Source: a virus
Taxonomy: Duplodnaviria; Caudoviricetes
DNA: 64,000 nucleotides
Reading direction: 5' to 3' (one strand)
IMG/VR virus record: IMGVR_UViG_3300040811_001959
The notes under the pieces are model-generated. The model searched no databases, had not been told where the DNA came from, and saw only the letters and a program-made list of their open reading frames with translations. Shown here piece after piece: positions 5,744-25,716 of the stretch (within the stretch, counting starts at the first letter, position 1; the number at the start of each line of letters is the position of its first letter). The position numbers and the translations under genes are program-made.

Positions 5744-5774
5744 TATAGTATTTATCGACTCGATAAATACTATA
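5744..5774. promoter_or_regulatory. Palindromic back-to-back late promoter pair for gp13 and gp14
   Basis: 14-bp perfect inverted repeat TATAGTATTTATCG-act-CGATAAATACTATA; each arm carries ATAAATAC pointing outward. Confidence 0.7.
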
Positions 5775-8428: not shown

Positions 8429-8866
8429 ATGAAAGAAATAGTTTGTAGTGGGGCGCTAATTTACAGTAAAAAAGAAAAAAGGTTTTTATTTTTGCATAGG
8501 ACAAAAGGCAAAAATAAAAACTTTTGGGGGTTAGTGGGTGGTATTACCGAAAAAGAAGAAACTCCTTGGACTGGCTTGCAAAGAGAAATTGTTGAAGAAA
8601 TTGGTCCTATTAGTATTTGTAAAAGTATACCATTAGAAACTTTTGTAAGTAATGACAATCATTTTCATTTTTATACCTATCTCTGTTTAGTAGAAGAAGA
8701 ATTTATTCCGCAATTAAACGATGAACATGATGGGTATGCATGGACATCATTATCAAAATGGCCTAGACCGCTACATCCTGGTCTTAGAAATACCTTAAGT
8801 GTTAAAATTAATCAAGTAAAATTAGAAACAGTAATTAAATTATTAGATTTATTAGCAAGTACCTAA
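8429..8866 (+). CDS. NUDIX hydrolase
   Basis: 145 aa; canonical Nudix box G-x5-E-x7-REIVEEIG; 'LNDEHDGYAW'. Confidence 0.9.
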   Translation: MKEIVCSGALIYSKKEKRFLFLHRTKGKNKNFWGLVGGITEKEETPWTGLQREIVEEIGPISICKSIPLETFVSNDNHFHFYTYLCLVEEEFIPQLNDEHDGYAWTSLSKWPRPLHPGLRNTLSVKINQVKLETVIKLLDLLAST

Positions 8867-9453
8867 ACCTTTAACTGTGTCATTGACTGGTTGTTTACTA
8901 TTCCTCTGATAAAAGTATTAAAAGATAAACTAATCCTAGGTAAATCTGATACATTTGGCGTAACTAGATGTTCTAAATTGCTAGGAAAAATTAATATTGT
9001 TCCCGGATCAGGGCAAAAAGTCATAGATTTAGCATTAAATAAATTTGGAGTTTCAATTTCATATTCAAGAGTTTGATATTGTCCAGTGATAAAATTTAAT
9101 AATCCAGTATCTTTATCGGCCTGTAATATAACTATACCTGAATAAACAGAATTAGGATGCCAATGTCTATGGTGCATTTGATCTCTAATAGATTTGTTAA
9201 GCCAACTTTCTGTTATATAAATTTCAGTCTGTTTTTTGACACTTAAAACATCATAAAAATAATCTTGTAAAGAAAGCATTACTTGCTCTTTGAGTATTGA
9301 AAATTCTGGCATTTCTAACACGTCGGTGCTCGTGCTTATAAAATTGTTATAATTTTCTGCCCATACAATATTATCAAGATTGACACTATCTATATCTATA
9401 CGTCCCTCGTATAATGGTTGGCTAAAAAGCGGATGAATACCTAATTCATTCAT
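8863..9453 (-). CDS. 2OG-Fe(II) oxygenase-like protein (TIGR02466 type)
   Basis: 196 aa; 'SWLN', 'HWHPNSVYSG', 'LIFPSNLEHLVTPN....RISLSFN'. Confidence 0.8.
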   Translation of the reverse strand: MNELGIHPLFSQPLYEGRIDIDSVNLDNIVWAENYNNFISTSTDVLEMPEFSILKEQVMLSLQDYFYDVLSVKKQTEIYITESWLNKSIRDQMHHRHWHPNSVYSGIVILQADKDTGLLNFITGQYQTLEYEIETPNLFNAKSMTFCPDPGTILIFPSNLEHLVTPNVSDLPRISLSFNTFIRGIVNNQSMTQLKV

Positions 9454-9469
9454 ATTGTTTTCCTTTTAT

Positions 9470-9477
9470 TATATATA
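9470..9477. promoter_or_regulatory. Palindromic TATATATA, candidate bidirectional late promoter variant
   Basis: One mismatch to TATAAATA on both strands, in the 30-nt divergent gap between 9453(-) and 9484(+). The AT-rich context makes chance plausible. Confidence 0.3.
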
Positions 9478-9483
9478 CTTTAT

Positions 9484-9840
9484 ATGGAAGAAAAAGTTAA
9501 AAAAACTGATTGGGGATACGAATTAATATGGGCATCACATCCTACCTATACGGGAAAAATTTTAGTATTCGAAGGTTTAAATGCTCGTACAGATATGTAT
9601 CTTCATAAAACAAAAAATAAAAGTTTGTTTGTAAATAGTGGAAAATTTAAAATTAGATGGATTGAAACCAGTAATGGCGAAATTAAAGAAGTAGAATTTC
9701 TAGAAGGTAATACTTTTGATGTTCCTGCAATGATGCCAATACAAATTTGCAGTCTAGCATACAATGGATCGATTGCAGAAGTTTCTGATAACAATCAAGA
9801 CGATGTTTGTATAATTTTACAATCAAAAAATATTGGATAA
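9484..9840 (+). CDS. Cupin-fold protein (sugar isomerase-like), metal ligands degenerate
   Basis: 118 aa; 'K.DWGYELIWA....YTGKILVF', 'VNSGKFKIRWI'; expected HxH..E and PH positions read YLH..NKS and PI. Confidence 0.6.
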   Translation: MEEKVKKTDWGYELIWASHPTYTGKILVFEGLNARTDMYLHKTKNKSLFVNSGKFKIRWIETSNGEIKEVEFLEGNTFDVPAMMPIQICSLAYNGSIAEVSDNNQDDVCIILQSKNIG

Positions 9841-9843
9841 ATT

Positions 9844-10119
9844 ATGTTGCCTTCTTTACAAAATTCGTCTAATGTTAGAAATAATTTAGCTAGGTACAGT
9901 CATAAAATACAATATATTAAAAATATTAAAGCAAAAAATAAAGCACTTATAGCCTTAGAAAATTTAAAAAATGCTATCGCAGATATTGAACAAGCTCATC
10001 GAATTAGAACTTCAGGCGATTTACGTCCAAATTTGTTTGATTACCACAGAGAAAAAATTTTTTTATTTAGAAAAGAAATTGAAAAATTAATTAAAGAAAA
10101 TACTCAAAAGAAAAAATGA
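9844..10119 (+). CDS. Hypothetical helical protein
   Basis: 91 aa ORF co-oriented with neighbours; stop overlaps next ATG (ATGA). Confidence 0.6.
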   Translation: MLPSLQNSSNVRNNLARYSHKIQYIKNIKAKNKALIALENLKNAIADIEQAHRIRTSGDLRPNLFDYHREKIFLFRKEIEKLIKENTQKKK

Positions 10120-10940
10120 TATTTAAATCAAAAAAAAAATGGGTTAGATTTTATTGTTTAGACGAAAATGTTGCAACATTATATCCTTTAATTAAATCAA
10201 AAGCAGTAATTCGAAACTGGAATAATTTAGCAAGCACAGAAAGGAATCGTCCTGAACAAGGATCACAGACTGTTTTAAATTGTCCTGCTATTAAATTAGT
10301 AAAAGATTTTGGATATGTATTAACTGCTCCTGCAGATTTTGTTATAAAATCTGGAGATGAGTCTGCTTATTTTTCCTGGGAAACACCTTTTATATTTAAA
10401 AGGTCAAGTGAACGGTATACTTTTGGGGGTACCGATTATTACATCGATTGGCATAGTCATGCTCAGGTTGAACCAATTATTCCAAAGAGCAATACCCAAG
10501 TTAATAAACCATATTTACACACTGCAGTAAAAGTAGAAACTCCATGGAGGATAAAGGCAAGCAGTGATATAGTTTTATTACAAATTCCTGTTACATACAA
10601 TAATGAAGAAAGATTTACTGCTGCTATAGGAATCGTTGATCCAGAATATATGCATGCGGTCACTGTACAGTTGTTTTGGCATGTAACTAACAGCGAAACA
10701 CTTGTAAGAGCAGGAACTCCACTAGCACAATATGTTCCAATTCATAGGAACTTTTTAGAAAAAAACAGTATAGATTTTATTGTGGATAAAGCTACAGATG
10801 TAGAAAAAGAACTAGAAGATGCGTATGCCTTTGCCAATCATAGCAGATTTCCTCGGACGGATACTGCAAACAATAAAATTAAAATTATAAAAAATTTGTT
10901 CAACTATTTTAGAAAAAAATATCCTAAACAAAAGATTTAA
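10116..10940 (+). CDS. dUTPase-like fold / DUF6065-like protein (paralog of 23289-24077)
   Basis: 274 aa; 'NCPAI....GYVLTAPADF', 'PWRI', 'G.VD', 'GTPLAQYVP'; shares these motifs with 23289-24077. Confidence 0.5.
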   Translation: MIFKSKKKWVRFYCLDENVATLYPLIKSKAVIRNWNNLASTERNRPEQGSQTVLNCPAIKLVKDFGYVLTAPADFVIKSGDESAYFSWETPFIFKRSSERYTFGGTDYYIDWHSHAQVEPIIPKSNTQVNKPYLHTAVKVETPWRIKASSDIVLLQIPVTYNNEERFTAAIGIVDPEYMHAVTVQLFWHVTNSETLVRAGTPLAQYVPIHRNFLEKNSIDFIVDKATDVEKELEDAYAFANHSRFPRTDTANNKIKIIKNLFNYFRKKYPKQKI

Positions 10941-10942
10941 AA

Positions 10943-11521
10943 ATGAAAATAGAAAATTCGGTTGGTATTTTTGATAACGTTTTAAACACAGACGAATGCA
11001 AAAAAATAATTGATCAATACAATTTATTAGCAGGACTTAATTTATCTTTTAATCGTATAGATTTAGGTTCTTTTGATAGTCATAGAATTAAAGATAACGC
11101 TGTATTTTTACTAGAAGAAAAATCTATGCGTCTTTTGCCTACAATGGATTTTTTAGAAACTTTTTTGAATAAATTTTGGAATTGTTACAAACAATACACA
11201 GATCATTATAGTGTTATAAAAGAAGCAGGTAATCATTATATTAGATCAATGAAATTACAAAAAACTCTACCAGGCGAAGGTTATCATATATGGCATTTTG
11301 AAAATGATAGTGCCGAAAAGTGCTCTAGATTGTGTGCGTGGGGATTATATTTAAATACAATAAATGACGGCGGAGAAACAGAATTCCTTTATCAAAGTAT
11401 GCGGGTTTCTGCGTTAGAAGGAAGGTTAATATTATGGCCTGCAACCTACACGCATACTCACAGAGGAAATCCTCCTTTAAAAGGAGAAAAATATTTACTA
11501 ACAGGTTGGCTAGAGTACTAA
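10943..11521 (+). CDS. 2OG-Fe(II) oxygenase (prolyl 4-hydroxylase-like)
   Basis: 192 aa; 'QKTLPGEGYHIWHFE', 'YLNTINDGGETEF', 'WPA.YTHTHRGNPP...KY..TGW'. Confidence 0.9.
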   Translation: MKIENSVGIFDNVLNTDECKKIIDQYNLLAGLNLSFNRIDLGSFDSHRIKDNAVFLLEEKSMRLLPTMDFLETFLNKFWNCYKQYTDHYSVIKEAGNHYIRSMKLQKTLPGEGYHIWHFENDSAEKCSRLCAWGLYLNTINDGGETEFLYQSMRVSALEGRLILWPATYTHTHRGNPPLKGEKYLLTGWLEY

Positions 11522-12132
11522 TGGAAATTTTAAAACTTTTTCCTATAGATTTTTTTGTTTTTTATAACAAAAATTTTGATAATAAAAAGCTAATTGCAAA
11601 TTTAGAAACATTAGAAGATATACAAATAAAAAAAACTACTCAAATTAGTTTACTAATTAATTTAAAAAACAATAAAAACTTTCAAGATTTATTTAATTGG
11701 TTTAGTGACTGTTTAAAAGAAGTAAAAAAAATTAAGCAATATGATTGTGATCAAATAAAAATAACAAATAGCTGGGTAAATGTTTCATTAGCAGATTACA
11801 ACATGTATTTAGATACACACAAACACAGTATGAGTTTTTACAGTGGTATATATTACTTAACAGACGGATCTGCTACAACCTTCATTGATCCATTTGAACA
11901 AGCTATTGATACACAATTGCAGGTATTAAAATTTAATTATCACCCAGAAGAAAAAATTAGTCCCGAACCAGGAAAATTAATAATTTTTCCTAGTTACATT
12001 TATCATAAGAGCGATATACATATCGCAAATACTTCAAGATACATTATAAGTTTTAATACAATGCCAACGGGTAAAATTAACTATAATTTAGCAACAGACT
12101 CAAAAATTAATATTAAAATTGAAGATGATTAA
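11521..12132 (+). CDS. 2OG-Fe(II) oxygenase-like protein (TIGR02466 type); start re-assigned to 11521
   Basis: ATG overlaps the upstream TAA (TAATG); 'SWVN', 'HKHSMSFYSGIYY', 'IIFPSYIYH', 'RYIISFN'. Confidence 0.8.
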   Translation: MEILKLFPIDFFVFYNKNFDNKKLIANLETLEDIQIKKTTQISLLINLKNNKNFQDLFNWFSDCLKEVKKIKQYDCDQIKITNSWVNVSLADYNMYLDTHKHSMSFYSGIYYLTDGSATTFIDPFEQAIDTQLQVLKFNYHPEEKISPEPGKLIIFPSYIYHKSDIHIANTSRYIISFNTMPTGKINYNLATDSKINIKIEDD

Positions 12133-13615
12133 CGATATAATTATTTTAGGAGGAGGAAATGCAGGATTAATGGCTGCTATATATCTAAAAACTGCTATTC
12201 CTTCTTTAAATTTGTCAATAATAAAATCTGATAAAATTGGAACTATAGGTGTTGGCGAAGGTTCTACAGAACATTGGAAATTATTTGCAGATGCAGTTGA
12301 CATTAGCATGGTAGATCTCGTAAAAGAATGCGGTGCAACGATTAAAATTGGTATTAAATTCGAAAATTGGCACGGTGATAACACAAGTTATTTCCATAGT
12401 TTGCCCGAGTTTTTAGTAAATACAGATCCGTATTGCGGTGCACCATATACTTTAATGCGACTTATAGGCAATGGAATTTCCTCAGAAAAATTACATTGGG
12501 ATTTACCGTTACAAGGTTATGTTAAAGAACCTTTCACTGATTATTATCAATTCCATTTTGACAGTGAAAAATTAAATCTTTTTTTAGAAAATAAAGCAAA
12601 AGCATTAAATATTAAATTTGTAATTGCTGATATTGTCGATGTTTCTGTAGATAATGAAGGATTTGTAGAATCTATAATAGATAATAACAACAATAAATAT
12701 TTTGCTGATTTTTTTATAGATAGTAGCGGGTTTAGGCGGGTTATATCATCTAAGTTAGGGTCTACTTGGACAGACTGGTCAAAATATTTACCATTAAACT
12801 CAGCTGTTGCGTTTCAAACACCCAGTCAAAAAGATATTCCAGTTTTTACTTTAGCAAAAGCCATGGATGCAGGATGGCATTGGCGGAGTCCAGTACAAGA
12901 TCGATTTGGTAATGGATATGTATTTAGCGATGCTTTTATTAATGAAGAAACTGCAGTCAACGAAATACAAAAATATTTTCCTGATACTATCAACATTGGT
13001 AGGAAAATTAATTTTATCTCAGGAAAAATTGACAAAGCATGGACTAAAAATTGTGTATCAATTGGATTAAGCAGTAATTTTGTAGAACCTTTAGAAGCAA
13101 GCAGCATCAGTACAACTATACAACAAGTCAGATTATTAGCAAGTTCGTTATGGAATTGGTCTCGGAAAGATGTATCTACCAGTAAAAATTATAATAAGAT
13201 TTTTGATGATATGTTATATAATATTTTAGATTTTATACAACTGCACTATTTTACAAAACGTGACGATACTGCATTTTGGAAATGGTGTAGTAATGAAATG
13301 ACTGTAACAGATTTTAATAAAGAAAATTTAGAACTATTTTCAAATAATTTTGTAAATCAAATTTTATTACCTGAGGATTTTACTAACCGTACATATAGGA
13401 TTTATGATTGCTTAAATTGGATACAGGTAATGCACGGCTTAAGAATGTTTAATCAAACAAATATATTACAACTCTTTAAGACAAGATTTTCGCAATATCA
13501 AGAATATGACGAATTGCAAATTTCTTATGTTCCTAACAAATTAACAGAAGAATGGTATTCTAGTAGAGAAGCATTAGAGTACATGAAATCTATTTCAACT
13601 AATTATGTATTATGA
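12125..13615 (+). CDS. Flavin-dependent halogenase, tryptophan-halogenase family (copy 1)
   Basis: GGGNAG FAD motif, 'VGEGS', catalytic-Lys motif 'ATIKIGIKFENW', 'GWHWRSP..DRFGNGYVF', 'FVEPLEASS'. ATG at 12125 preferred over TTG at 12119. Confidence 0.9.
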   Translation: MINDIIILGGGNAGLMAAIYLKTAIPSLNLSIIKSDKIGTIGVGEGSTEHWKLFADAVDISMVDLVKECGATIKIGIKFENWHGDNTSYFHSLPEFLVNTDPYCGAPYTLMRLIGNGISSEKLHWDLPLQGYVKEPFTDYYQFHFDSEKLNLFLENKAKALNIKFVIADIVDVSVDNEGFVESIIDNNNNKYFADFFIDSSGFRRVISSKLGSTWTDWSKYLPLNSAVAFQTPSQKDIPVFTLAKAMDAGWHWRSPVQDRFGNGYVFSDAFINEETAVNEIQKYFPDTINIGRKINFISGKIDKAWTKNCVSIGLSSNFVEPLEASSISTTIQQVRLLASSLWNWSRKDVSTSKNYNKIFDDMLYNILDFIQLHYFTKRDDTAFWKWCSNEMTVTDFNKENLELFSNNFVNQILLPEDFTNRTYRIYDCLNWIQVMHGLRMFNQTNILQLFKTRFSQYQEYDELQISYVPNKLTEEWYSSREALEYMKSISTNYVL

Positions 13616-15120
13616 TAGATAAAATCTGTATAGTAGGTGGCGGAACAAGTGGATACATTGCAGCGTTAATGCTTAGATCTGCATATCCTAATTTAGATAT
13701 ACAATTAATTGAAAGTTCTAAAATTGGAATTGTAGGAGTGGGCGAAGGAACTACAGAACATTTCCGTAAGTTCATTATACATTCGAACATCAATATCTTT
13801 GATTTATTTAGAGAAACAGATGCAACTTTTAAAATTGGAATCAAATTTCAAAATTGGTTAGGAAATAATAAACATTATTGGCATAATCTTACTGAATTTT
13901 TTGTTACACAATCTGATACTAATGGTCTTTTTACATCATGGTTACAATTAGTGATGGATAATGTAGAGCCAGATAAAACTGTTTGGGATTTAGCTATTAA
14001 TGGTAAACATATTGCTCCTTTAGATAAAATTATATCACAATTCCATTTTAACACTTTTAAATTGAATTCTTTTTTTAGGAATCTTTCAATAACAAGGAAT
14101 ATCCATATTGTTGACACTGAAATAGTTGATACTATACTAGATGAAAATAATAATATTAACCATATTATCGACAAAGATAACAAAATTTATGCTGCAGATT
14201 TTTTTATTGATTGTACAGGTTTTGCAAGGATACTGGCTAGAAAATTAGAAGTTAAATGGCATACTATATTTGATAAACTTCCAATGAATAGTGCCTTGGC
14301 ATTTTCAACCGATATTACCGAAGTAATACCAAATTATACATTATCGACAGCAATGTCTAGTGGATGGGCATGGAGGATTCCTACACAGGAAAGGTATGGC
14401 AATGGATACGTTTTTTGTAACAATTTTATAAATCCTGATAGGGCGTTAGATGAAATAGAAAATTATTATGTAACCAACAATATTACAAAAAAAATTACAG
14501 ATGCAAGATATTTTAACTTTACAAGTGGGTTTTCTGATAAATTTTGGTATAAAAATTGTGCATTTGTTGGGCTAAGTGGATTGTTTGTAGAACCACTAGA
14601 AGCAACTTCTATAGGAGCCGTAATACAACAATGTTTTTTATTAACTAATTCTTTGTATTTTTTCCACAAAAATGATACCAAAGTAAGTAAAATACACAAT
14701 GACAGGATGAATAAGATTGTTAGTAACATAATTGACTTTATTCAACTTCATTACCTTACAAGTAGAAAAGATTCAAATTTTTGGAAATTTTGCAAAAATG
14801 ATTTAAAATTAACTGATTTTAATGCAGAGTATCTTGATTATATGTCTTATAATTTTCCTGATAGTCAACTTTTTCAAGATACTATGTTAATGTTTAATTG
14901 TTTAAATTTTGGCCAAGTTATGTTAGGTTTGAATTTAATATCAAAAAAAGGACAGGAAAATATTAAACAGCAATTTCAAAAACATTTATATATCAATTCT
15001 TTAAAATTAGAAGATATATATAATGACATGTCAAATCCAGATTTGCAAACCTATTCACACAATGAAGCTATTGAATTATTAAAAGAATTAGATAAACATG
15101 AATACAAATACAAGTTATGA
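13612..15120 (+). CDS. Flavin-dependent halogenase, tryptophan-halogenase family (copy 2)
   Basis: 502 aa; GGGTSG, 'VGEGT', 'ATFKIGIKFQNW', 'GWAWRIP..ERYGNGYVF', 'FVEPLEATS'. Confidence 0.9.
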   Translation: MIDKICIVGGGTSGYIAALMLRSAYPNLDIQLIESSKIGIVGVGEGTTEHFRKFIIHSNINIFDLFRETDATFKIGIKFQNWLGNNKHYWHNLTEFFVTQSDTNGLFTSWLQLVMDNVEPDKTVWDLAINGKHIAPLDKIISQFHFNTFKLNSFFRNLSITRNIHIVDTEIVDTILDENNNINHIIDKDNKIYAADFFIDCTGFARILARKLEVKWHTIFDKLPMNSALAFSTDITEVIPNYTLSTAMSSGWAWRIPTQERYGNGYVFCNNFINPDRALDEIENYYVTNNITKKITDARYFNFTSGFSDKFWYKNCAFVGLSGLFVEPLEATSIGAVIQQCFLLTNSLYFFHKNDTKVSKIHNDRMNKIVSNIIDFIQLHYLTSRKDSNFWKFCKNDLKLTDFNAEYLDYMSYNFPDSQLFQDTMLMFNCLNFGQVMLGLNLISKKGQENIKQQFQKHLYINSLKLEDIYNDMSNPDLQTYSHNEAIELLKELDKHEYKYKL

Positions 15121-16615
15121 TGTTGTAATATTAGGAGGAGGTATAGCAGGATGGCTAACGTCCTTATTTGTGAAAAGAATTTATCCAAACTTAAAAATTT
15201 TAGTTATTGAGAATTCTAAACATTTACCAATTATAGCAGGCGAAAGTGGCGCCACTACGTTTAATGATATTTTAAACTACTTAAATATTGATTTACAAGA
15301 TTTTCAAAAAAAAACAAATGCTACTCCTAAGCTAGGAGGAAAATTTTACAACTGGAGTAAAAATACCGAGTTTATTCATGCTTTACAAACTGATTATTCA
15401 CCATGGCTCGATAACTATAAAACATTTAATAATGAGTTTAGTTTTAAAAGTATGAATAATTTTTTACAAAAAGAAAGAGCTGGTTATTTTGTAGAATTGC
15501 ACTGTATTAAGAATAAAATACCTTTGTCAAAATTATTTTTTGCTGATGCTTTTATAGAGCAAAATAAAGTTCCTAAATCTAATGATAGTCGTTTACAGCC
15601 TATGTGGCACTATGAAAGTAGAGCAACTGCTGCTTATCTTAAAGAAATCTCTTTTAATAGAGGAATTATTTATAAAGATGCAATATTTGTAGATGCAGAA
15701 CGTAACTCTAATAACGGTAATATAAGCTTTTTGCAATTAAAAAATGGCGAAAAAATATACAGTAAATGGTTTTTTGATTGTACTGGCTTTGCACGATTAT
15801 TATTAGGAAATACGTTAAAAGAACCAATAATTGATAATAGTTATTATTTTCCAGCTCATTCTGTAGTAGCATGGTGGGGAGAAACAGAACCTAATGTTGT
15901 CACAAAAGCATATGCAATGGATTATGGGTGGTCTTGGAATGTAAATTTAAAAAATCGTAATGGTAGTGGATATATATATGATAGCAACCATACAACTTTA
16001 GATAATGCAATTCAAGAAGCTGAAAAAAAATTTAATAAAAAAATTGATCCTGTAGCTAATTTTACGTATCAACCAGGATTTATGGAAAACTCCTGGAAAA
16101 ATAATGTTATAGGCATAGGATTAAGCACTGGATTTTTAGAACCTTTAGAGGCAAATGGTATTGCTTTAATTTGTGAATCTTTATTTGCTTTAGACGATTT
16201 ATGGAATCCATATGAAGTTAATACTACACTACAAAATAGATATAATGAAAGATTGTATACTATTACAGTTGATATAAGAGATTTTTTATTGTTGCATTAT
16301 ACAGGACAAAAAAATAATACAGATTTTTGGAATATGTATCTTAATGAGATAGATTTAAGCGAATCCTTAAAAAATAAAATCTATTTGTTAACTGAACATG
16401 TCGAACATTCCAAAGAAAAACCTTTTTTTAATGGTTACTCGCCGACTGCATGGTTAATGGTAATGCAGGGTATGAATTATTTTGATAAAGAGTACAATAT
16501 AAACAATTCAGTAATAAATAATTTTTCTAATGTGTTAAATACAATTACAAATATTTATAGTAAAGAAATTGATAGCCATATTACTATAACAAAATGGCTT
16601 AATAATGAAAGGTAA
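15098..16615 (+). CDS. Flavin-dependent halogenase, tryptophan-halogenase family (copy 3, divergent)
   Basis: 505 aa; GGGIAG, 'AGESG', 'ATPKLGGKFYNW', 'GWSWNVN...RNGSGYIY', 'FLEPLEANG'. Confidence 0.85.
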   Translation: MNTNTSYDVVILGGGIAGWLTSLFVKRIYPNLKILVIENSKHLPIIAGESGATTFNDILNYLNIDLQDFQKKTNATPKLGGKFYNWSKNTEFIHALQTDYSPWLDNYKTFNNEFSFKSMNNFLQKERAGYFVELHCIKNKIPLSKLFFADAFIEQNKVPKSNDSRLQPMWHYESRATAAYLKEISFNRGIIYKDAIFVDAERNSNNGNISFLQLKNGEKIYSKWFFDCTGFARLLLGNTLKEPIIDNSYYFPAHSVVAWWGETEPNVVTKAYAMDYGWSWNVNLKNRNGSGYIYDSNHTTLDNAIQEAEKKFNKKIDPVANFTYQPGFMENSWKNNVIGIGLSTGFLEPLEANGIALICESLFALDDLWNPYEVNTTLQNRYNERLYTITVDIRDFLLLHYTGQKNNTDFWNMYLNEIDLSESLKNKIYLLTEHVEHSKEKPFFNGYSPTAWLMVMQGMNYFDKEYNINNSVINNFSNVLNTITNIYSKEIDSHITITKWLNNER

Positions 16616-16621
16616 AAAATA

Positions 16622-16825
16622 ATGAATTACTATGTAAAAATAATTAGGGTTCCAGAGCTAGAGAATACAGCTCAAAAAATGAATATTAAAAAAGTTTATG
16701 CAAAAGCTAACACAATTGCAGACGCAGAAATTATATTTGAGAAGGCATATCATCCTAAATATACAATAGCAGGTCCAAATAGAATAGATTCTGTTCCTAG
16801 TGGAGAATCAATTTTACAATTATAA
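16622..16825 (+). CDS. Hypothetical small protein
   Basis: 67 aa, last ORF of the + arm; weak SD (AAGG); stop overlaps the convergent gene's stop in TTATAA. Confidence 0.5.
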   Translation: MNYYVKIIRVPELENTAQKMNIKKVYAKANTIADAEIIFEKAYHPKYTIAGPNRIDSVPSGESILQL

Positions 16826-17994: not shown

Positions 17995-18605
17995 AATATA
18001 ATATTAGATAAATTTGTATTAATGACGCATCTAAATTTACTTTTTTTACAAAAACTTGCAGTATGATAGTAGTATCCTGGAAAAACTAAAATTTTACCTT
18101 TCTCTGGTTTTACTCTTTTTTTAATAGTAAAATCTCTAGAGGAAATTTTTTCAATGTCTTTACTTCCTGGATCATAATTTTCATTTATTTCATTAAAAAT
18201 TATTGTATCTCCGTCGCTATCATTTACATAATAAATGGCTACAATATGTTTAAAAAAACTATCTATATGTGGCATAAATGCATTTTCATTAATTGCAGGA
18301 TTTTTAAAAACTAAATTAGCCCTCATTCTTATTAGCCTTGATATGTCTTGGTCTTTGATTTTATCTTGTAAATTTAAAATGATTGGATACACCATATCAA
18401 AGAAAGTGCTTGTAAAAGAATTTTGCTCATAAAAAAAGTGATTACATCCAGCAGGGTTGTCTAAATCATTAATAAAACATTTATCTCCTGATACAATGTT
18501 TTTATTTAATGCCCAAGAAAAATTAAATCCGGTCATTACAGTTTCAATATAATCAGCCTGACTTTTTGGAATAATATTTTTTATTTCAATAATTTCATTT
18601 ATCAT
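17991..18605 (-). CDS. 2OG-Fe(II) oxygenase (paralog of 19807-20391)
   Basis: 204 aa; 'RMRANL', 'PHID', 'YYVNDSDGDT', 'PEKGKILVFPG..YHTAS', 'RCVINTN'. Confidence 0.85.
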   Translation of the reverse strand: MINEIIEIKNIIPKSQADYIETVMTGFNFSWALNKNIVSGDKCFINDLDNPAGCNHFFYEQNSFTSTFFDMVYPIILNLQDKIKDQDISRLIRMRANLVFKNPAINENAFMPHIDSFFKHIVAIYYVNDSDGDTIIFNEINENYDPGSKDIEKISSRDFTIKKRVKPEKGKILVFPGYYYHTASFCKKSKFRCVINTNLSNIIL

Positions 18606-19108
18606 GTGACTTGTCCAAAAAATCTTAATATTACTAATTTATCATTTTCGTTTGGCATAAAAGAATTATGTATTTTAAAATATTCTTTTGGAGAAAAAAA
18701 TATACATCGGTTCTCTTTAATTTTTATTGTAATTGAAGGAGTAAAATTGCTATCAATAGAATTGTAAAATACAATATCATCGTTTTCATTTGAATTTAAA
18801 AAAATTATACCTCCAATATCAAAATTAGGATAGTAAATATTAATATCAGTATTATCTTCTAATTTAGTTATGTAATTAAAAACCATATACAATTGGTTAA
18901 AATCTTCTTTACCATTTGCATGTATAATAATTTTTTTAGCAATGTTATGAAATATTTTTTCGTTAATTTCATTAATTGGTTTAGATATATTGCCAGGAAA
19001 AATATGTTCTGTTGTTATATACTCTTCATCTAAAGCTAAATTTTTGTATAATGTATAAAATTCAAAAAAATCATCTATAATTTTTACAGGCTGGTTAAAA
19101 TAACGCAT
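18602..19108 (-). CDS. Degenerate 2OG-Fe(II) oxygenase-like (DUF6445-like) protein
   Basis: 'IIDDFF', 'FPG..S', 'GGIIFLN', 'ENRCIFF' mirror 19110-19814, but HxD and distal His are absent. Start probably the ATG at 19108 (track gives 19123). Confidence 0.6.
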   Translation of the reverse strand: MRYFNQPVKIIDDFFEFYTLYKNLALDEEYITTEHIFPGNISKPINEINEKIFHNIAKKIIIHANGKEDFNQLYMVFNYITKLEDNTDINIYYPNFDIGGIIFLNSNENDDIVFYNSIDSNFTPSITIKIKENRCIFFSPKEYFKIHNSFMPNENDKLVILRFFGQVT

Positions 19109-19109
19109 A

Positions 19110-19814
19110 TTAGATTTTAACAAAAAAAACTTGGGTTAGTCTAGCATCTTTTCCTTTACCAAAAAAGTTTTCAGCAGAATGCCAATTTCTAGTATCAAAC
19201 ATAATAAATCTATTAAACTTTGATTCAATTACTATGTCAGTATCAAACTTTGATCTTTGATCTTTCCTATATTTTTCAAATTTATTACTATCTATTTCAT
19301 CAGTTTGATTTACATCTTGCTCAAATAAATCTTTAAAAAACTCTCCATTATGATCGTTGCAATCTTTGTAAATACAGGTACCAGAACCTAAAGGTGCATC
19401 ATTGTTAAGATAGATAACACCGGCAACTTGATCTTGCGGATCGTCATCATGAACCCATCCGTTACCGTAGTTTTCGTCAGTTAATTGAAATCCGGTTTCT
19501 AATCTTTCAATTTTTGTAATGCCGTAATCTTTTAATATAAACAGGATTTTTTTTAGAAAAATTTGAAAGAAATCATAATTTAATTCGTGCAATAATGTAG
19601 TGCGTAATCCGGGCCAGTTACCTCTATCTCCTTTGTAAAATTCTTGCTGTAGAGCAAAGTGTCTTATTATATCACAGTCTTCATAAAAATCATCAATTAT
19701 TATTGTAGGAAAATATGGATATAAAAATCTATTTTTGACATCATGTAATTCCATGAATTGAGATACTGGCAAATTGTGTTTATTGTTGAAAATATTAATG
19801 TACCAATTATCCAT
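19110..19814 (-). CDS. 2OG-Fe(II) oxygenase (DUF6445-like)
   Basis: 234 aa; 'IIDDFY', 'WPGLRT', 'GWVHDD', 'AGVIYLN', 'GSGT', 'FNRFIMFD...WHSA', 'RLTQVFF'. Confidence 0.85.
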   Translation of the reverse strand: MDNWYINIFNNKHNLPVSQFMELHDVKNRFLYPYFPTIIIDDFYEDCDIIRHFALQQEFYKGDRGNWPGLRTTLLHELNYDFFQIFLKKILFILKDYGITKIERLETGFQLTDENYGNGWVHDDDPQDQVAGVIYLNNDAPLGSGTCIYKDCNDHNGEFFKDLFEQDVNQTDEIDSNKFEKYRKDQRSKFDTDIVIESKFNRFIMFDTRNWHSAENFFGKGKDARLTQVFFVKI

Positions 19815-20391
19815 TTATTTTTCCAGTAAAATTAAATGTAATTACAATTCTTTTCGTACACATTTTAGGACAAGTGCTTGCGTGATAATGCCATCCGTTA
19901 AACAATAACAATTTTCCAGCCTTGGGTGTACACGTATGCATAGGATAGTATTTTTCAGCTTTATCAATTTCATGGAATATAATTGTATCTCCATCGCTGT
20001 AATTTACATAATAAATTACAACAAAATGTTCTTGATCAAAGTCTCTATGCGGAGTATTGTACTTATATGGCAAGCTTGGCAATGAAAATTTTGTGTTCAA
20101 TAAAAATCCAGCCCTAATTCTTTTTAAATCAATTATTGTTAGAGAAAATTGTTTTTCTATTATAGATAACAAAGGCTTAAAAAAATCTAAATGCAGATTA
20201 CTTATGTTATTTTCATTATAAATTAAGTTACCAAAAGCAGGAGTTGAGTGTTGAGGCATATTAGAATTTTCAAAAGTTGTATCTTCCATAAAATGCCAGT
20301 CAAAATCTATATTTGTAAGATAATTATAAATTTTTTTAACATATTCTTTATCTTCTATATTTTTTTCGATAGGTTTAAAAATGTTACTCAT
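19807..20391 (-). CDS. 2OG-Fe(II) oxygenase (paralog of 17991-18605)
   Basis: 194 aa; 'RIRAG', 'TPHRD', 'YYVNYSDGDT', 'PKAGKLLLFNG.HYHAST.P', 'RIVITFN'. Confidence 0.85.
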   Translation of the reverse strand: MSNIFKPIEKNIEDKEYVKKIYNYLTNIDFDWHFMEDTTFENSNMPQHSTPAFGNLIYNENNISNLHLDFFKPLLSIIEKQFSLTIIDLKRIRAGFLLNTKFSLPSLPYKYNTPHRDFDQEHFVVIYYVNYSDGDTIIFHEIDKAEKYYPMHTCTPKAGKLLLFNGWHYHASTCPKMCTKRIVITFNFTGKING

Positions 20392-21103
20392 AATTTAATT
20401 TGTACCTTTCTCTATCAATAGAAAAATGTTTTGGATCAGTTTTATATTTATTCCAACACGGTATGCTCATACTTAATCGCTTACTACATGGATTTGCATA
20501 ATGATACATTCTTGACGGAATATACAAAACATCTCCTGGTTCTAACACAACATCTAAAGCAATAGATAAATCTTTTTCTTTAATAAAATTATTCATAGTA
20601 CCGGTAGGAAACAAATTTGATAATCTATTATTATAGACTTTCCACGGAGTTGTTCCTTCTACTTGAATAATAAAATTAGACGGATAATCTTCATGTATGT
20701 AAAAAGAACCATTTTTTTTAATGTTACAGTACACATGAATAGCTGCATTCACATAAAATTCTTGTTCAAAATATTTTAACAGTTGATTAGTGGCATCGTT
20801 GAATGATCCATAATTTAAAATTACAAGTCCAAATCCATTGTTAATTTTATCAAATATAAATGATTTGTCTTGTACAGTTTTTGACCAAACCCAAGTTTTA
20901 TTATAAGTTGGTATTTCTATTTTACTATTTGTTTGCGGATCAATAACTTCAAAGTCGAATAATTCAGGATAATTTAAACATTGTTCTACGTTGTGCCAAT
21001 TTAGATATTTTTCTGGTGCAGGAAAAATATTTTTCATATATAACGGATTATCATTTAAAAATAAATTACTTTGTTTTTTAAAATTTTCAAAAAAATTATT
21101 CAT
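20384..21103 (-). CDS. JmjC / cupin_4 (YcfD/ROXA-like) hydroxylase
   Basis: 'AAIHVY', 'FYIHEDY..NFIIQVEG...W', 'LEPGDVLYIPSRMYHYA', 'RLSMSIP'. Start probably the ATG at 21103 (SD AGGA) rather than 21124. Confidence 0.8.
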   Translation of the reverse strand: MNNFFENFKKQSNLFLNDNPLYMKNIFPAPEKYLNWHNVEQCLNYPELFDFEVIDPQTNSKIEIPTYNKTWVWSKTVQDKSFIFDKINNGFGLVILNYGSFNDATNQLLKYFEQEFYVNAAIHVYCNIKKNGSFYIHEDYPSNFIIQVEGTTPWKVYNNRLSNLFPTGTMNNFIKEKDLSIALDVVLEPGDVLYIPSRMYHYANPCSKRLSMSIPCWNKYKTDPKHFSIDRERYKLNYE

Positions 21104-21695
21104 ATATCCTATCAATCCTAACATTAAATGCTATTGATATTCTATCTTCGTCAGTAGGATTTCTAGAAACACCGTGAGCTAAATGTCCTGGAAATAATAA
21201 TAATTTTCCAGTTTTTGGTTTATAACTAATAGCACCGCAACTAATTTGAGTATAATTTTCGATAAAACTTTGACTTGTAATAATATAATCTGCTAGACTA
21301 TTTTTATAAAAAGTAATATCTCCTTGATTTTCTGTTGCTTTTAGATAAAATGCTCCAGATAAAAATGAATTATCATGTATGTGATGTGAGTTAGAATGTC
21401 CTTTTTTATTAATATTAAACCAATAATTTTCAATTTTTACTTTTGATAATTTTTCTATATATCCATAATCTCTGACGCATTGTTCTGCTTGTTCTAATAT
21501 TTTATTATTTAAAATTTGTAATGGTTTAAATGCTGTAGGTAAAAAATCTTTACTTTGCCATCCTCCGTCATTACTAAGTTCGCGACCTGTTGGGTCATAT
21601 TTGTATATATCGTAACACAAATTAAGTAAATCAGTTGTATCTATATTAGTCTCTTCCCACCATATCGGCGTCGGAAAATAAAGGTCAAAATGCAT
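21096..21695 (-). CDS. 2OG-Fe(II) oxygenase-like protein (TIGR02466 type)
   Basis: 199 aa; 'FPTPIW', 'GGWQS', 'WFNIN', 'HIHDNSFLSGAFY', 'LFPGHLAHGV..N....RISIAFN'. Confidence 0.85.
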   Translation of the reverse strand: MHFDLYFPTPIWWEETNIDTTDLLNLCYDIYKYDPTGRELSNDGGWQSKDFLPTAFKPLQILNNKILEQAEQCVRDYGYIEKLSKVKIENYWFNINKKGHSNSHHIHDNSFLSGAFYLKATENQGDITFYKNSLADYIITSQSFIENYTQISCGAISYKPKTGKLLLFPGHLAHGVSRNPTDEDRISIAFNVRIDRIYE

Positions 21696-22488
21696 ATCTT
21701 AAATCATTTAAAGTTTTTGGCACAGGTATAAAGCTAAAAGCAAACGAATGACTCCATCTAAAATCAACTTCAGGATCTACATATGCTAGGTGCGGTATGT
21801 TTGCTTTGTACATTGTCATAGTTTTTTCGTTTGTAGGTATTGACGCTAACAAATTAAATCCCCATTTCTTTAATTCCTCATCTGGCATGTTAAACCAATT
21901 ATTTGCCCTAGTAGCATTCCTGCTTATTTCTACCCATTGTTTATGAAATTTGTGGGTTTCGTCAACTTGAAAATCATAAACAGTTTCATACATTTTTCCT
22001 TCATAATGAAATAACTTTGTACATGACATGTCAAGAGAATGATCTGTAAACCATAAATTAGTAACTAAGCCATTAACATAATCTACGTGAGGAATTCTCC
22101 AGCAACTTATAGGTTTAGTTAATTCACGAAAGTATAAATTGCCCCATTCGTGTATTTGCTCTAAATATATATCATTAGAAATATTTTTTGAATAAAAATC
22201 AATAAGTAAATAGCAAATATCTTTATAAATCCATTCTGGTAAGTGTATGCTATCAAATGGGTTAGGATCAAAATTCGTTAATGCGCTATTGTCTTTTTGT
22301 ATTGGAAAAGATGCTATAAGATTTTTAAAAATTTCAAAATGCTTTATGTCAAACGGCGGATCAGTTATCCAATAACCATAATCTTTATCAATTGAAAAAT
22401 ATTTACAATTCCAATTGTCAACATTGTGAATTTTAATTACTTTGTCAAAATTATTTGCATCAGGATAGCATCTTTTAAATTCTGTCAT
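21685..22488 (-). CDS. 2OG-Fe(II) oxygenase-like protein (DUF6445-like)
   Basis: 267 aa; 'WRIPHVD', 'NLWFT', 'TKLF', 'MY.ANIPHLA', 'RWSHSF'. Confidence 0.65.
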   Translation of the reverse strand: MTEFKRCYPDANNFDKVIKIHNVDNWNCKYFSIDKDYGYWITDPPFDIKHFEIFKNLIASFPIQKDNSALTNFDPNPFDSIHLPEWIYKDICYLLIDFYSKNISNDIYLEQIHEWGNLYFRELTKPISCWRIPHVDYVNGLVTNLWFTDHSLDMSCTKLFHYEGKMYETVYDFQVDETHKFHKQWVEISRNATRANNWFNMPDEELKKWGFNLLASIPTNEKTMTMYKANIPHLAYVDPEVDFRWSHSFAFSFIPVPKTLNDLRYAF

Positions 22489-23066
22489 CTTATGTTAAAA
22501 GTAAATATAATTCTTTCGTGATCACTTAAATTGGGTTGGACTCTGTGTTTTAACCAGCCGGGAAATATTAAAACATCATTAGTGGTTACAGGTAATTCTT
22601 TATAAAGAGATTCTTCAGGAAAAATAGGATATATAGATTTATGATATTCTAATGGGTCTTTAAACTCTATATATCCAGAATTATCAGGAACTTGTAAGTA
22701 AGCCGTAACTACAAATGTTATAAAATTATGACTATGTTCTAAAGTTTGTCCACCTTTATAATGAATGTTAATCCATGATTCTGTAACTTCATTATATTCA
22801 TAAATAAATTTATTTTCTTTCCTAATAAAATAAATCATACTTCCTAGCCATTCTTGGAATTCACTTAGTTCTTCCCAAGTATGTGGCTGTTCAGTGTTGC
22901 TAGCTTTAATTGACGATTTTGAATTTCCTATTTCTAATAAACTTGTTTCTGAATTATTTTCTAATAGGTTATAAATTTTAGGTTTTAATATTTCAAATTC
23001 AAATGGAAATTGAAATTTGTAAATATAAGGAGTAAAAAGATTAACTCCATTATTCAATAGGTTCAT
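22485..23066 (-). CDS. 2OG-Fe(II) oxygenase-like protein (TIGR02466 type)
   Basis: 193 aa; 'SWINIH', 'LEHSH', 'AYLQVP.NSG.IEF.DP', 'LIFPGWLKHRVQPN....RIIFTFN'. Confidence 0.85.
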   Translation of the reverse strand: MNLLNNGVNLFTPYIYKFQFPFEFEILKPKIYNLLENNSETSLLEIGNSKSSIKASNTEQPHTWEELSEFQEWLGSMIYFIRKENKFIYEYNEVTESWINIHYKGGQTLEHSHNFITFVVTAYLQVPDNSGYIEFKDPLEYHKSIYPIFPEESLYKELPVTTNDVLIFPGWLKHRVQPNLSDHERIIFTFNIR

Positions 23067-23292
23067 TTTCTATTAGCTCCAACGCTAATTGTAGACCCAT
23101 TATTGTTCCTTCTATTTTAAGTAAATCAGAACTTAGTTCTTGTCTGGATGCAAAATCTATACTAGTAATACCGTATGGGTTAAGTTTTAAATCATTAAAC
23201 TCATTTTCAATACGTTCTAAGTCATTTTTTATTTCTAATGACTTATTTTCAAGATTTTTTAATGCATTGTTTATTTTATCAACATAAATCAT
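23050..23292 (-). CDS. Hypothetical coiled-coil protein
   Basis: 80 aa with heptad-like L/I spacing; overlaps both neighbours. Confidence 0.55.
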   Translation of the reverse strand: MIYVDKINNALKNLENKSLEIKNDLERIENEFNDLKLNPYGITSIDFASRQELSSDLLKIEGTIMGLQLALELIENEPIE

Positions 23293-24077
23293 TTTTTTCC
23301 TTTTGATAATATTCTATTTAGTCTTTTAATTCTAGCCAAAACAGAATCTTTCCTGTAGATTGAAGAATTTGAAGCATAAACAAAATCTCTTTCAAGTTTA
23401 TAATCAGCATTAGTTGCTTCTTCAACTGTTAAAGTGTAAGTAGAATCTTGCAATATCTTTTTATCTATTGGTAAAATTTGACAAAGAGGAGTGCCTGCTT
23501 TAATCAAAATTTCGTCATTTAATTTTTTCCAATACAACTGGACATTTAAAACATGCATGTAACTTGGATCTAAAAAACCAGTTGCAGCTTCAAACCTATC
23601 TTCATTATTATAAGCAACTGGCATTATAAGCAGTATGATATTATTTGAAACTTCAACCCTCCACGGAGTTTCAACTTTAATTACAGTCTTAAGGATATTA
23701 TCTTTATCATTTAATAAAGGTTCGGTTTGTATAGAATTGTGTGTATTTATATATGCATATTCTGCCATTTGTCCACATTTATTAAACTGATAACTTTCGT
23801 CCCAATAAACACTTACTCCATCTCCGTTTGTTTTTATTATAAAATCAGCAGGTGCAGTTAAAATATATCCTGTGTTTATTATTTTCTGTATTCCTGGACA
23901 ATTTTGAGAACTTTTAGTATTAGTATCTACTTCTTGTTTTATTTTTAACCAATCTCTTTTTACAAGTCGGGATTTTTGTATTGGATACAATTTTGCAACC
24001 CCTGGTTCAAGAGTATAAAATCTAATAAATTGTTTTTTTTTAAAAAAAGAGGTCAGTTTACTTGTTAATATATTCAT
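23289..24077 (-). CDS. dUTPase-like fold / DUF6065-like protein (paralog of 10116-10940)
   Basis: 262 aa; 'IRFY.L..GVA.LYP', 'NCPGI....GYILTAPADF', 'KVETPWRV', 'YNNEDRF.AA.G..DP.YMH...VQL.W', 'AGTPL.Q..P'. Confidence 0.5.
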   Translation of the reverse strand: MNILTSKLTSFFKKKQFIRFYTLEPGVAKLYPIQKSRLVKRDWLKIKQEVDTNTKSSQNCPGIQKIINTGYILTAPADFIIKTNGDGVSVYWDESYQFNKCGQMAEYAYINTHNSIQTEPLLNDKDNILKTVIKVETPWRVEVSNNIILLIMPVAYNNEDRFEAATGFLDPSYMHVLNVQLYWKKLNDEILIKAGTPLCQILPIDKKILQDSTYTLTVEEATNADYKLERDFVYASNSSIYRKDSVLARIKRLNRILSKGKK

Positions 24078-25674
24078 CTATGCCATTATATATATTATCT
24101 TTTAAAAAATCATAATGACTAGGAAGTGTAAGAACATGTTTTGTAATAGCCTCTCTATATTTAAAATAAGCACGTTTAGTAAAACCAATTTGTTCTTTTT
24201 TTGTTGCTAAATTTTTTGTATCATTAAAATTAAATATAAGATTTTTTGTAGCAATAGATTTTAACCCCATTCCAGCTGCAATGTACATATTTCCTATATA
24301 ATCGCTATGATAATGATGATTTATCATGCTTCCTAGAAAATTTGTATATTGATTTTGATTTAAAACAAATTCATTAAATTGTTCCGGAACATACTCATTA
24401 ATTTGTGTACACCATCTCCAATAAGGTGTATCAGTTCTCTGTGACAATGCATAATGTTGCGATACAAAATCTCTAAATTTTGTTACATCAAAATCAACTG
24501 CTAAATTGTAGGCATCTTTTTCTGCCCTTGTTACATATCCATTTCGTCTATTTAAAACATCTAATAATTTTACTATATTTTCGTGAGTGGTTAGCAAACC
24601 TGTTGATTCTAACGGCTCTACAAATCCGTAACTAAGTCCTATTCCTAAAACATTATTCAACCATGCTCTTCTTCTTTTACCGTGTCTAATACTAATAGGA
24701 AATAGTTCTGCTTTATCTGCTATTTTTTTACCATAAATTTTTTCTAAATGTTTACTAAATTCAATAGCGGCATTCTCTTTTTCAATAAATCTTTTAGAAT
24801 AAACATATCCTGTTCCTATTCTGTTCCATAACGGAATAGTCCAAACCCATCCATTATTTAGAGCAAAACAATCTGTTACATTTAGCATCTGCTTTTTTCT
24901 ATCTGTGTAGGGCAAACGACATGCCCATGCGCTATCATTAGCCAAATATTTTGTAAATGGCATAAATGCAGAACCCATCCAATCTTCTAATAGAAGTGAT
25001 TTGAATCCTGTGCAATCTATCCAAAGATCAGCAGTTAGAGTTCTTCCGTCGATTAAAAGTATGTCTGTTATATTGTTTAAGTGATCTTTTTTAAATGAAT
25101 GAGCATCACCTATTATGTGCTCAACACCATTTGGTATTGCTACATTATCTTTTAAATATTGACCAAATAATTGCGCATCAAGATGATATGCTGTGTCAAA
25201 ATCAAAATCAAAATTTCTTAATAATTTATCTTTGTTTTTTGTTTGTTTATTATATTTTGCTAATAATGTGTTTCCGGTGCAAAAAAATTCAGCAAATGAT
25301 TCCGGAGGAAACTCGTCAGGATAAAGCGTTGCTAATTCAGACCAGGAATCAGTTCCTCCGGGTTTATCTGTATAGTCTAATCCTTCTGAGAATGGATATT
25401 CAAACGATTCGCCTTGCCCAATCCTAAAATTTGTAAAACGTATTGAATTTTTATATGTTGCATTGCATTTTGGCATCCAATCTTCATCTTTTAGATCTAA
25501 AAGCCGCAAAAATCTATTAATATGTCCTAGTGTACTTTCACCTACACCAACTGTTCCTATTATTTTAGATTCTACAAGTGTTATAGATAAATGGGGACAA
25601 CATTTGCTTAAAGCGGCTGCTGTCATCCAGCCTGAACTTCCGCCGCCTATAATTACAACTTTTTTAATGTGCAT
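24058..25674 (-). CDS. Flavin-dependent halogenase, tryptophan-halogenase family (copy 4)
   Basis: 538 aa; GGGSSG, 'VGESTL', 'ATYKNSIRF', 'GWVWTIPL..RIGTGYVY', 'FVEPLESTG' (PrnA-like E-S-T-G). Confidence 0.92.
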   Translation of the reverse strand: MHIKKVVIIGGGSSGWMTAAALSKCCPHLSITLVESKIIGTVGVGESTLGHINRFLRLLDLKDEDWMPKCNATYKNSIRFTNFRIGQGESFEYPFSEGLDYTDKPGGTDSWSELATLYPDEFPPESFAEFFCTGNTLLAKYNKQTKNKDKLLRNFDFDFDTAYHLDAQLFGQYLKDNVAIPNGVEHIIGDAHSFKKDHLNNITDILLIDGRTLTADLWIDCTGFKSLLLEDWMGSAFMPFTKYLANDSAWACRLPYTDRKKQMLNVTDCFALNNGWVWTIPLWNRIGTGYVYSKRFIEKENAAIEFSKHLEKIYGKKIADKAELFPISIRHGKRRRAWLNNVLGIGLSYGFVEPLESTGLLTTHENIVKLLDVLNRRNGYVTRAEKDAYNLAVDFDVTKFRDFVSQHYALSQRTDTPYWRWCTQINEYVPEQFNEFVLNQNQYTNFLGSMINHHYHSDYIGNMYIAAGMGLKSIATKNLIFNFNDTKNLATKKEQIGFTKRAYFKYREAITKHVLTLPSHYDFLKDNIYNGIDEYINK

Positions 25675-25693
25675 AAATTATTCCTGTTATGGG

Positions 25694-25715
25694 ATATTTA
25701 TGCAAAGATATTTAG
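25694..25715 (-). promoter_or_regulatory. Tandem late promoter-like motifs upstream of halogenase 4
   Basis: Minus-strand CTAAATAT (25708-25715) and ATAAATAT (25694-25701) in the 42-nt gap before the SD AGGA. Confidence 0.55.
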
Positions 25716-25716
25716 A

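Follow-up and report, generated by a model that had tools for sequence, protein, structure and literature searches.

A fibre-linked halogenase and oxygenase cassette in an uncultured marine jumbo myovirus, and its possible role in tailoring the fibre tip

We analysed a 64,000-nucleotide stretch (the window) of the IMG/VR virus record IMGVR_UViG_3300040811_001959, in which an island of halogenase and oxygenase genes (8863-25715) is set among the structural genes of a tailed phage. The island is made of two joined units, a minus-strand arm that goes with the fibre genes and a separate plus-strand arm. Comparison with relatives indicates that the minus arm, a gp40-like gene and three fibre genes form one laterally mobile cassette, which appears to be the home locus of the viral halogenase VirX1. 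The island is an enlarged copy, in a jumbo phage, of this laterally shared cassette known from Syn9, and is not peculiar to this phage. We propose, at a probability of roughly 0.45, that the enzyme set is made late and tailors the conserved His/Tyr-rich loops of a polyglycine fibre tip.

Several hundred related contigs, 595 of them confirmed, were available for comparison. Linkage was evaluated in a fibre-anchored set of 53 related loci having at least 2.5 kb of downstream sequence, each of which carries three fibre paralogs, then a gp40-like gene and then a VirX1-type halogenase. Longer loci go on, on one strand, with a dUTPase-fold gene, a small open reading frame (ORF), a 2-oxoglutarate (2OG) oxygenase gene of the 2OG5 type, a gp46-type gene, another 2OG5 gene, a JmjC gene, a 2OG gene, a DUF6445 gene and further 2OG genes, an order that holds with minor variations. 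Among isolates, the fibre domain matched Syn9, Syn10 and S-CREM1, each a few kb from its own halogenase, and the cassette was also found in Sf-FP1, S-RIM44, P-TIM40, S-WAM1, P-RSM6 and S-SZBM1; in Sf-FP1 and S-RIM44 it shares the strand of the neck genes and lies immediately upstream of them. The minus arm with its fibre genes (16820-25674 and 25717-28806) is collinear, gene for gene, with Syn9 gp38-gp54 and S-CREM1 ORF66-80. The preliminary description of this DNA had tied the whole enzyme set to the fibre genes. In relatives this holds for the minus arm, in all 53 contigs and in 8 of the 10 cultured cyanomyoviruses examined, and fails for the plus arm.

The enzymes and the fibre genes are also present and absent together. 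Whole-record searches gave one record with both halogenase and fibre, adjacent to each other, two with neither, and one without a halogenase in which the glycine-rich domain occurs solely inside a 1431-residue protein; the three short fibre genes are likewise missing from related records without halogenases. Identity of the cassette proteins to those of Syn9 and S-CREM1 is 35-66%, as against 20-30% for neck14 and gp15 compared with Sf-FP1 and S-RIM44. The block has therefore moved, or was kept, as a unit. A literature search found no report of a fibre link for the enzyme cluster. The fibre linkage, its co-presence and co-absence, the conserved late motif and the fibre-tip fold described below are new here, whereas the enzyme cluster itself was published earlier.

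That publication, by Iyer, Abhiman, de Souza and Aravind in 2010 (PMC2938197), described the Syn9 dioxygenase-halogenase array with ten dioxygenases and read it as organohalogen secondary metabolism; the term 'tail fiber' is absent from its text. Syn9 gp41-gp54 have the same order as the arm analysed here: a VirX1-type halogenase, a Cys-containing dUTPase-fold gene, a small ORF, a TIGR02466-type gene, a gp46-type gene, a MINA/NO66 JmjC gene and a P4H-like (prolyl 4-hydroxylase-like) gene and, further on, gp52-type (DUF6445) and gp54-type oxygenases. As here, gp38/39-type fibre genes and a gp40-type gene lie upstream. With its collinear orthologs, a JmjC gene nearest to NO66, the dUTPase fold and the residue Cys60, the minus arm is best classed as a Syn9-type cluster. 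Syn9 has two fibre paralogs and two VirX1-type halogenases, whereas here there are three fibres and one VirX1-type halogenase, and only here is there a second, convergent arm, which adds three halogenases of the PrnA type, another dUTPase-fold gene and further oxygenases. Dioxygenases of some bacterial operons have been predicted to hydroxylate co-encoded collagen-like or tail-collar proteins (PMC2938197). Such operons offer a precedent for the tailoring of a co-encoded surface fibre, although enzyme families and substrates differ and no halogenase is involved. The Mimivirus collagen hydroxylase/glycosyltransferase is another such precedent, again from other families and with no halogenase.

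The four tryptophan-halogenase-family genes listed in the preliminary description were all confirmed, matching PF04820 at E values from 4e-79 to 8e-103 (267-345 bits against a cut-off of 21). We compared the translations and an alignment with the halogenase motif set of PMC8407142 (GxGxxG, the catalytic Lys, WxWxIP and Glu). GxGxxG, the catalytic Lys and the Glu of EPLE are present in all four, and WxWxIP in three, the third gene (15098-16615) reading WSWNVN instead. The four are thus predicted to be intact flavin-dependent halogenases. No flavin reductase was recognised in the island, and we assume that the host supplies it. The first gene of the enzyme arm (24058-25674, minus) matches VirX1 (PDB 6QGM) over its full length (residues 3-531 to 4-529, E 1.8e-191), with all catalytic motifs, and is 54-61% identical to the Syn9 and S-CREM1 halogenases. 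This match, together with the common gene neighbourhood, supports its assignment as a VirX1 ortholog. VirX1, from cyanophage Syn10, is a trimeric flavin-dependent halogenase/iodinase that has a large accessible pocket and prefers iodide; it halogenates many small aromatics in vitro, and its natural substrate and gene cluster were given as unknown (PMC8407142). The three plus-arm halogenases, in tandem at 12119-13615, 13612-15120 and 15098-16615 (plus), belong to the PrnA/T4-GC_212 type. Identity between the first two is 42%, and the closest isolate matches of the three, at 34-40%, are in S-SCSM2R, P-SSM2 and HTVC008M.

The three genes that head the cassette (26208-28806, minus) encode paralogous fibre-tip proteins of 285-287 residues with a TNF-like and a polyglycine (glycine-rich, GRD) domain, scoring 28.8-42.4 bits for Gly_rich_2 (PF21722; cut-off 24.3). 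An AlphaFold2 (AF2) model is confident at residues ~80-220 and of low confidence at the His-rich stretch 220-268. It matches the fibre of cyanophage Pam3 (7ypx_A) with a Z score of 15.2 and a root-mean-square deviation of 2.7 over 164 residues, and also the Bxb1 tail tip (Z 13.8) and the glycine-rich domain of ALK (Z 9-10). Only the fold search led to the Pam3 fibre; a sequence profile of the family missed it. On this model the Gly-rich proteins are predicted to have the fold of a solved fibre tip, with the TNF-like sandwich and polyglycine lattice likewise seen in Pam3 gp24, the polyglycine adhesin gp38 of S16 and the ALK GRD. Across relatives the three paralogs keep a position-specific orthology, judged by their pattern of identities, and the C-terminal glycine-rich domain has His, Tyr, Arg, Pro and Gln residues that do not vary among 46 sequences. 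This is in contrast to Pam3, where the glycine-rich domain is hypervariable at its distal tip; here the domain is His-rich with many invariant residues and, unlike in Pam3, the fibre genes precede an enzyme array. The loops at the distal ends of the Pam3 glycine motifs have been proposed as receptor-binding sites, and its chaperone gp25 binds the fibre gp24 as a 3:3 complex (PMC9608196). The small gp25 gene lies directly downstream of the fibre gene, a position like that of the gp40-like gene here (25717-26211, minus; 164 residues; Syn9 gp40 family, phrog_1787). In the related contigs and cultured cassettes this gene invariably has the fibre genes on one side and the halogenase on the other. 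Its product belongs to the atlas 'Gp40 family', with weak leads to tail-fibre-assembly families, and its position makes it a candidate fibre chaperone. In one halogenase-free 78.6-kb record (L178, G004:C1:57600-59100) the glycine-rich domain inside the 1431-residue protein contains no His.

The preliminary description had placed two late-promoter-like motifs ahead of the VirX1-type halogenase. One of them stands: CATAAATA (25702-25695, minus), which resembles a T4-type late promoter and lies 28 nt ahead of the halogenase ATG, fits the NATAAATA motif found ahead of structural genes in this phage, whereas CTAAATAT at 25715-25708 is only a variant of it. Copies of NATAAATA lie 12-41 nt (most of them 25-32 nt) before the starts of the tube, neck, fibre and giant structural genes as well as of the VirX1-type halogenase. 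Among 36 distinct relatives, 27 keep ATAAATA at -27 to -46 before the halogenase, against a background of 1.8e-4 per base, while the sequence flanking the motif diverges. The record also encodes a gp55-like late sigma factor, so that both hallmarks of a T4-type late transcription unit, an upstream TATAAATA-like motif and a sigma factor of the gp55 type, were found. From the conserved motif and the gp55 homolog we predict late expression of the enzyme arm. In four metatranscriptome libraries there are contigs that cover the fibre genes, the gp40-like gene, the start of the halogenase and some oxygenases; being assembled contigs, they show presence and not level, strand or timing.

About 13 genes of the island are predicted to be of the Fe/2OG type. 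The preliminary description had counted 13 2OG-Fe(II)/JmjC-type genes, of which seven are supported by Pfam and three by profile-profile comparison (hhalign), the other three being placed by Syn9 orthology in the absence of a hidden Markov model match. The genes above Pfam cut-offs start at 8863 (minus), 10943 and 11434 (plus), 19110 (minus, DUF6445), 20384 (minus, JmjC_2), 21096 (minus) and 22485 (minus). Those at 17991 and 19807 (minus) score slightly under the Pfam cut-off and were grouped with 2OG enzymes by hhalign, which grouped 18602 (minus) with DUF6445 at 100%. The genes at 16820, 17440 and 21685 (minus) gave no match to 2OG families by hhalign, by Pfam at E 5 or by NCBIfam. They are orthologs of Syn9 gp54, gp47 and gp46, counted among the ten dioxygenases in PMC2938197, and we call them oxygenases because of this orthology and an atlas lead.

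Ten of the oxygenase-type genes form an array in Syn9 order (16820-23066, minus). Its members, named by their starts, are 16820 (Syn9 gp54-like), 17440 (gp47-like), 17991 and 19807 (gp53-like 2OG), 18602 and 19110 (DUF6445, gp52-like), 20384 (JmjC of the MINA/NO66 type, gp49-like), 21096 (gp48-like), 21685 (gp46-like) and 22485 (gp45-like). Read by eye, most oxygenase translations contain motifs like the iron triad HxD/E...H. The gene at 18602-19123 has N.Y where an aligned paralog has the iron-binding H.D, and having lost HxD it may be a catalytically dead copy; at this position relatives alternate between the 18602-type gene and a full DUF6445 gene. The closest solved relatives of the JmjC gene are NO66 and JMJD5, and that of the P4H-like gene (2OG-FeII_Oxy_3; 10943-11521, plus) is a Bacillus prolyl 4-hydroxylase, all of them protein-residue hydroxylases. 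Next to the P4H-like gene is a 2OG-FeII_Oxy_5 gene listed from 11434 to 12132 (plus), whose true start is probably the ATG at 11521. A lone minus-strand gene (8863-9453) encodes a TIGR02466/2OG-FeII_Oxy_5 oxygenase (PF13759, 70 bits; TIGR02466, 65.8 bits). A role in DNA modification was considered and rejected, as there were no matches to the TET/JBP or AlkB families.

The one cupin and the two dUTPase-like paralogs of the preliminary description were likewise recovered. The 118-residue cupin, which with a 91-residue helical ORF occupies 9484-10119 (plus) and is kept in relatives, is supported solely by a PHROG 'cysteine dioxygenase' match (phrog_7851, 1e-14). The dUTPase-fold paralogs, both of the Syn9 gp43 family, are 37% identical to each other. 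The plus-strand copy (10116-10940) is 44% identical to Syn9 gp43, and the minus-strand copy (23289-24077), with the invariant Cys, forms a pair (23050-24077) with an 80-residue helical ORF like Syn9 gp44. The jelly-roll fold was modelled by AF2 with a mean confidence (pLDDT) of 90, and all the Foldseek PDB matches listed are dUTPases, with template-modelling scores of ~0.6-0.69 by target (about 0.65) at 11-14% identity. A PDB sequence search matched no solved dUTPase, and a single-sequence locus search returned identical contigs alone. Cys60, Asp78, His113 and Lys134 are invariant in the family; the conserved Cys of Syn9 gp43 was noted by Iyer et al. 2010 (PMC2938197). On the model, the paralogs have the fold of a dUTPase, and we do not class them as dUTPase enzymes. 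The 80- and 91-residue ORFs were considered as precursors of ribosomally synthesised and post-translationally modified peptides and rejected, both being helical, low in aromatic residues and without His/Tyr/Trp-rich cores.

These data allow us to propose a mechanism for the cassette. A gp55-type sigma factor would fire the NATAAATA promoters late, and the fibre genes and the enzyme arm would be made together. The three TNF-like/polyglycine proteins would form a receptor-binding fibre tip, helped by the gp40-like protein, whose chaperone role is suggested by its position, as for Pam3 gp24/gp25. As a hypothesis only, the trimeric, open-pocket VirX1-type halogenase would use FADH2, O2 and halide on side chains of the fibre tip. 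Joined by ~10 non-redundant Fe/2OG hydroxylases (MINA/NO66-type JmjC, P4H-like, TIGR02466-type and others), it would act on the conserved His, Tyr, Asn, Pro and Arg in the loops between glycine motifs, and this halogenation and hydroxylation could alter receptor binding or stability. The fibre tip is the candidate substrate because of the fixed placement in two distant lineages, the matching presence and absence, and the late motif.

A number of observations weigh against this model. Halogenation and hydroxylation of the fibres are put forward as hypothesis only, and adjacency in a hypervariable region may be inherited or hitch-hiked. Of the exceptions among cultured cyanophages, S-B64 carries its related halogenase (39% identity) at a distance from fibre genes; S-MbCM6 has a PrnA-type halogenase near psbA. 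The glycine-rich domain in the halogenase-free 78.6-kb record implies that the enzymes are not needed for the fold. His makes up 5.7-7.4% of the cassette fibre domains and 0% of one relative's cassette-free domain, a comparison with one control only. The HxH motifs of T4 gp37 bind metal, and the His-rich loops could do likewise. A complex prediction for the VirX1-type halogenase with the fibre C-domain scored 0.28, which we list here although it is evidence neither way. Finally, in bacteria the same enzyme classes co-occur in clusters with TonB receptors, nonribosomal peptide synthetases (NRPS) and ATP-grasp ligases (PMC2938197).

This last point also favours a serious rival, in our judgement less likely, in which a free amino acid or short host-made peptide is turned into a small molecule bearing halogen and hydroxyl groups (for instance an antibiotic, a siderophore or a signal) and the fibres are merely neighbours. 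Such a product is the published reading of the Syn9 cluster (PMC2938197), and it agrees with the in vitro activity of VirX1 on many small aromatics (PMC8407142) and with the PrnA-type phage halogenases in the auxiliary metabolic gene (AMG) regions of P-SSM2 and S-MbCM6. However, Pfam and PHROG recognised no scaffold-forming enzyme, carrier protein or precursor peptide among the 30 ORFs, in agreement with the earlier statement that NRPS and polyketide synthase genes are lacking, and the orthologs of the island likewise have neither scaffold-forming enzyme nor carrier protein; ligases and exporters are absent from both. The strict order behind fibre genes across two myovirus lineages, the late-type promoter and the location of the block within structural genes also speak against a small-molecule product. 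We consider it improbable that the enzymes act instead on host or other phage proteins, such as ribosomal proteins or EF-Tu, or in nutrient-stress physiology, as auxiliary functions unrelated to the fibres. The JmjC gene does fall in the MINA/NO66 ribosomal-oxygenase clade, and 2OG oxygenases are scattered through cyanophage genomes outside the cassette, but this would leave unexplained the fixed order of ~10 enzymes behind the fibres, their joint loss and a late instead of an early promoter motif. Least probable of all is that the block is held by descent and en-bloc recombination in a hyperplastic region with no functional coupling, its His-rich loops binding metal: the site is a known hypervariable slot (the g15-g18 region, or host recognition cluster), relatives fill it with unrelated genes such as those for subtilases and FG-GAP proteins, and the plus arm is clearly variable, but order and content persist in two lineages at 35-66% identity, as against 20-30% for core genes, with zero exceptions in the 53 loci.

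To our knowledge, viral flavin-dependent halogenases are common in marine phages and a natural substrate or pathway is known for none; VirX1 is itself a valued biocatalyst. Cyanophage arrays of tandem dioxygenases have lacked an explanation since 2010, and the fibre linkage gives a concrete candidate substrate. If the fibre-tailoring model is true, these would be the first halogenated or enzyme-hydroxylated phage receptor-binding proteins, and host-range evolution in the ocean would gain a chemical layer. The idea is directly testable in the culturable phages Syn9, S-CREM1 and S-RIM44. More tentatively, the Syn9-type cluster in general may be a virion-tailoring machine, with Gly/His-rich fibres the natural substrate of VirX1-type viral halogenases. 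An equally tentative extension is that the fibre-plus-enzymes unit is a host-range module that passes between cyanophages, jumbo phages and, possibly, viruses of archaea.

The plus arm (9484-16825) carries three of the four halogenases, and no fibre link was found for it in relatives. All gp15-anchored relatives examined keep a core of gp15, NUDIX, cupin and an ORF of ~88 residues (91 here) adjoining the variable island, and the NUDIX hydrolase, small cupin and ~90-residue helical ORF (8429-10119, plus) form a conserved trio outside the variable enzyme set. Beyond this core the content of relatives varies. The closest, with neck proteins 97-99% identical, pass from the cupin region to a giant structural gene, one of them with two short unmatched ORFs in between, and others carry subtilases and FG-GAP proteins. 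In the related record G003 this arm holds a 2OG5 gene and, after it, two halogenases. PrnA-type halogenases lie among metabolic genes in P-SSM2 and S-MbCM6, and between terS and terL, with a 2OG gene, in HTVC008M. We read the plus arm as a variable, lineage-specific accretion of paralogs in a hypervariable slot beside gp15. The host recognition cluster, or g15-g18 hyperplastic region, of cyano- and pelagimyophages is likewise a large non-syntenic island of the structural region beside neck genes, and likewise mixes fibres with seemingly unrelated enzymes. The accounts of that region (Zaragoza-Solas 2020, PMC7029224; Millard 2009, cited in PMC2984593) stress glycosyltransferases and AMGs and describe no fixed fibre-halogenase-oxygenase cassette. 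In three relatives (L018:12562-17428, L027:13722-18468 and L080:6542-12481) the slot holds a different minus-strand block, which encodes two unmatched proteins of ~500 residues along with a subtilase (Peptidase_S8) and a protein with FG-GAP repeats; p7084-type (dUTPase-fold-family) genes adjoin it in L027 and L080. In the cultured Pelagibacter phage HTVC008M (KC465899.1 56808-65157) four 2OG genes and a gp54-type 'ferrochelatase', which is a P4H-like oxygenase by an atlas lead, lie beside the neck genes, and that stretch gave no match to a Gly-rich fibre.

The window is part of a 144-kb record, ~39% complete by CheckV. Its 1137-residue tail sheath is nearest to those of the jumbo T4-superfamily myoviruses Vibrio 2.275.O, PA5oct and Atu_ph07, and the phage is predicted to be an uncultured marine jumbo T4-superfamily myovirus outside Kyanoviridae. 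A search for psbA found none on the 144-kb record, which therefore gives no clue to the host, and megablast of the island against isolate phages gave no match. The gene order is tube, sheath, HNH, neck14, neck13, gp15 (a gp15-like sheath stabiliser by PHROG and Pfam; 6949-8415, plus), NUDIX hydrolase (PHROG and Pfam; 8429-8866, plus), the island, and then fibre genes and giant structural proteins. What the preliminary description had said of the layout held up: the island has gp15 on one side and fibre genes on the other, it is AT-rich (GC 0.24-0.31, against 0.34-0.44 in the flanks), most of its genes abut or overlap, and the minus strand from 16000 to 30000 has no terminator-like site. At the junction of the arms, a 67-residue ORF without a match (16622-16825, plus) overlaps the convergent minus arm by 6 nt at its 3' end. 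Upstream of the fibre triplet, two fibre-associated proteins of 153 and 106 residues (28809-29600, minus; PHROG tail fibre and synteny) precede it in nearly all related contigs that extend that far. Giant ORFs of 2697, 1811 and 2485 residues (29628-51845, minus) lie upstream of the cassette and share the strand of baseplate/fibre-type genes. A small HNH-endonuclease-like ORF (4636-4974, plus) sits between sheath and neck genes. Every gp15-anchored relative examined has it at this place, an unusual constancy for a homing-type gene. Lastly, the divergent neck14 and neck13 genes are separated by a 44-bp spacer (5730-5773) with a palindromic GATAAATA pair, one per direction.

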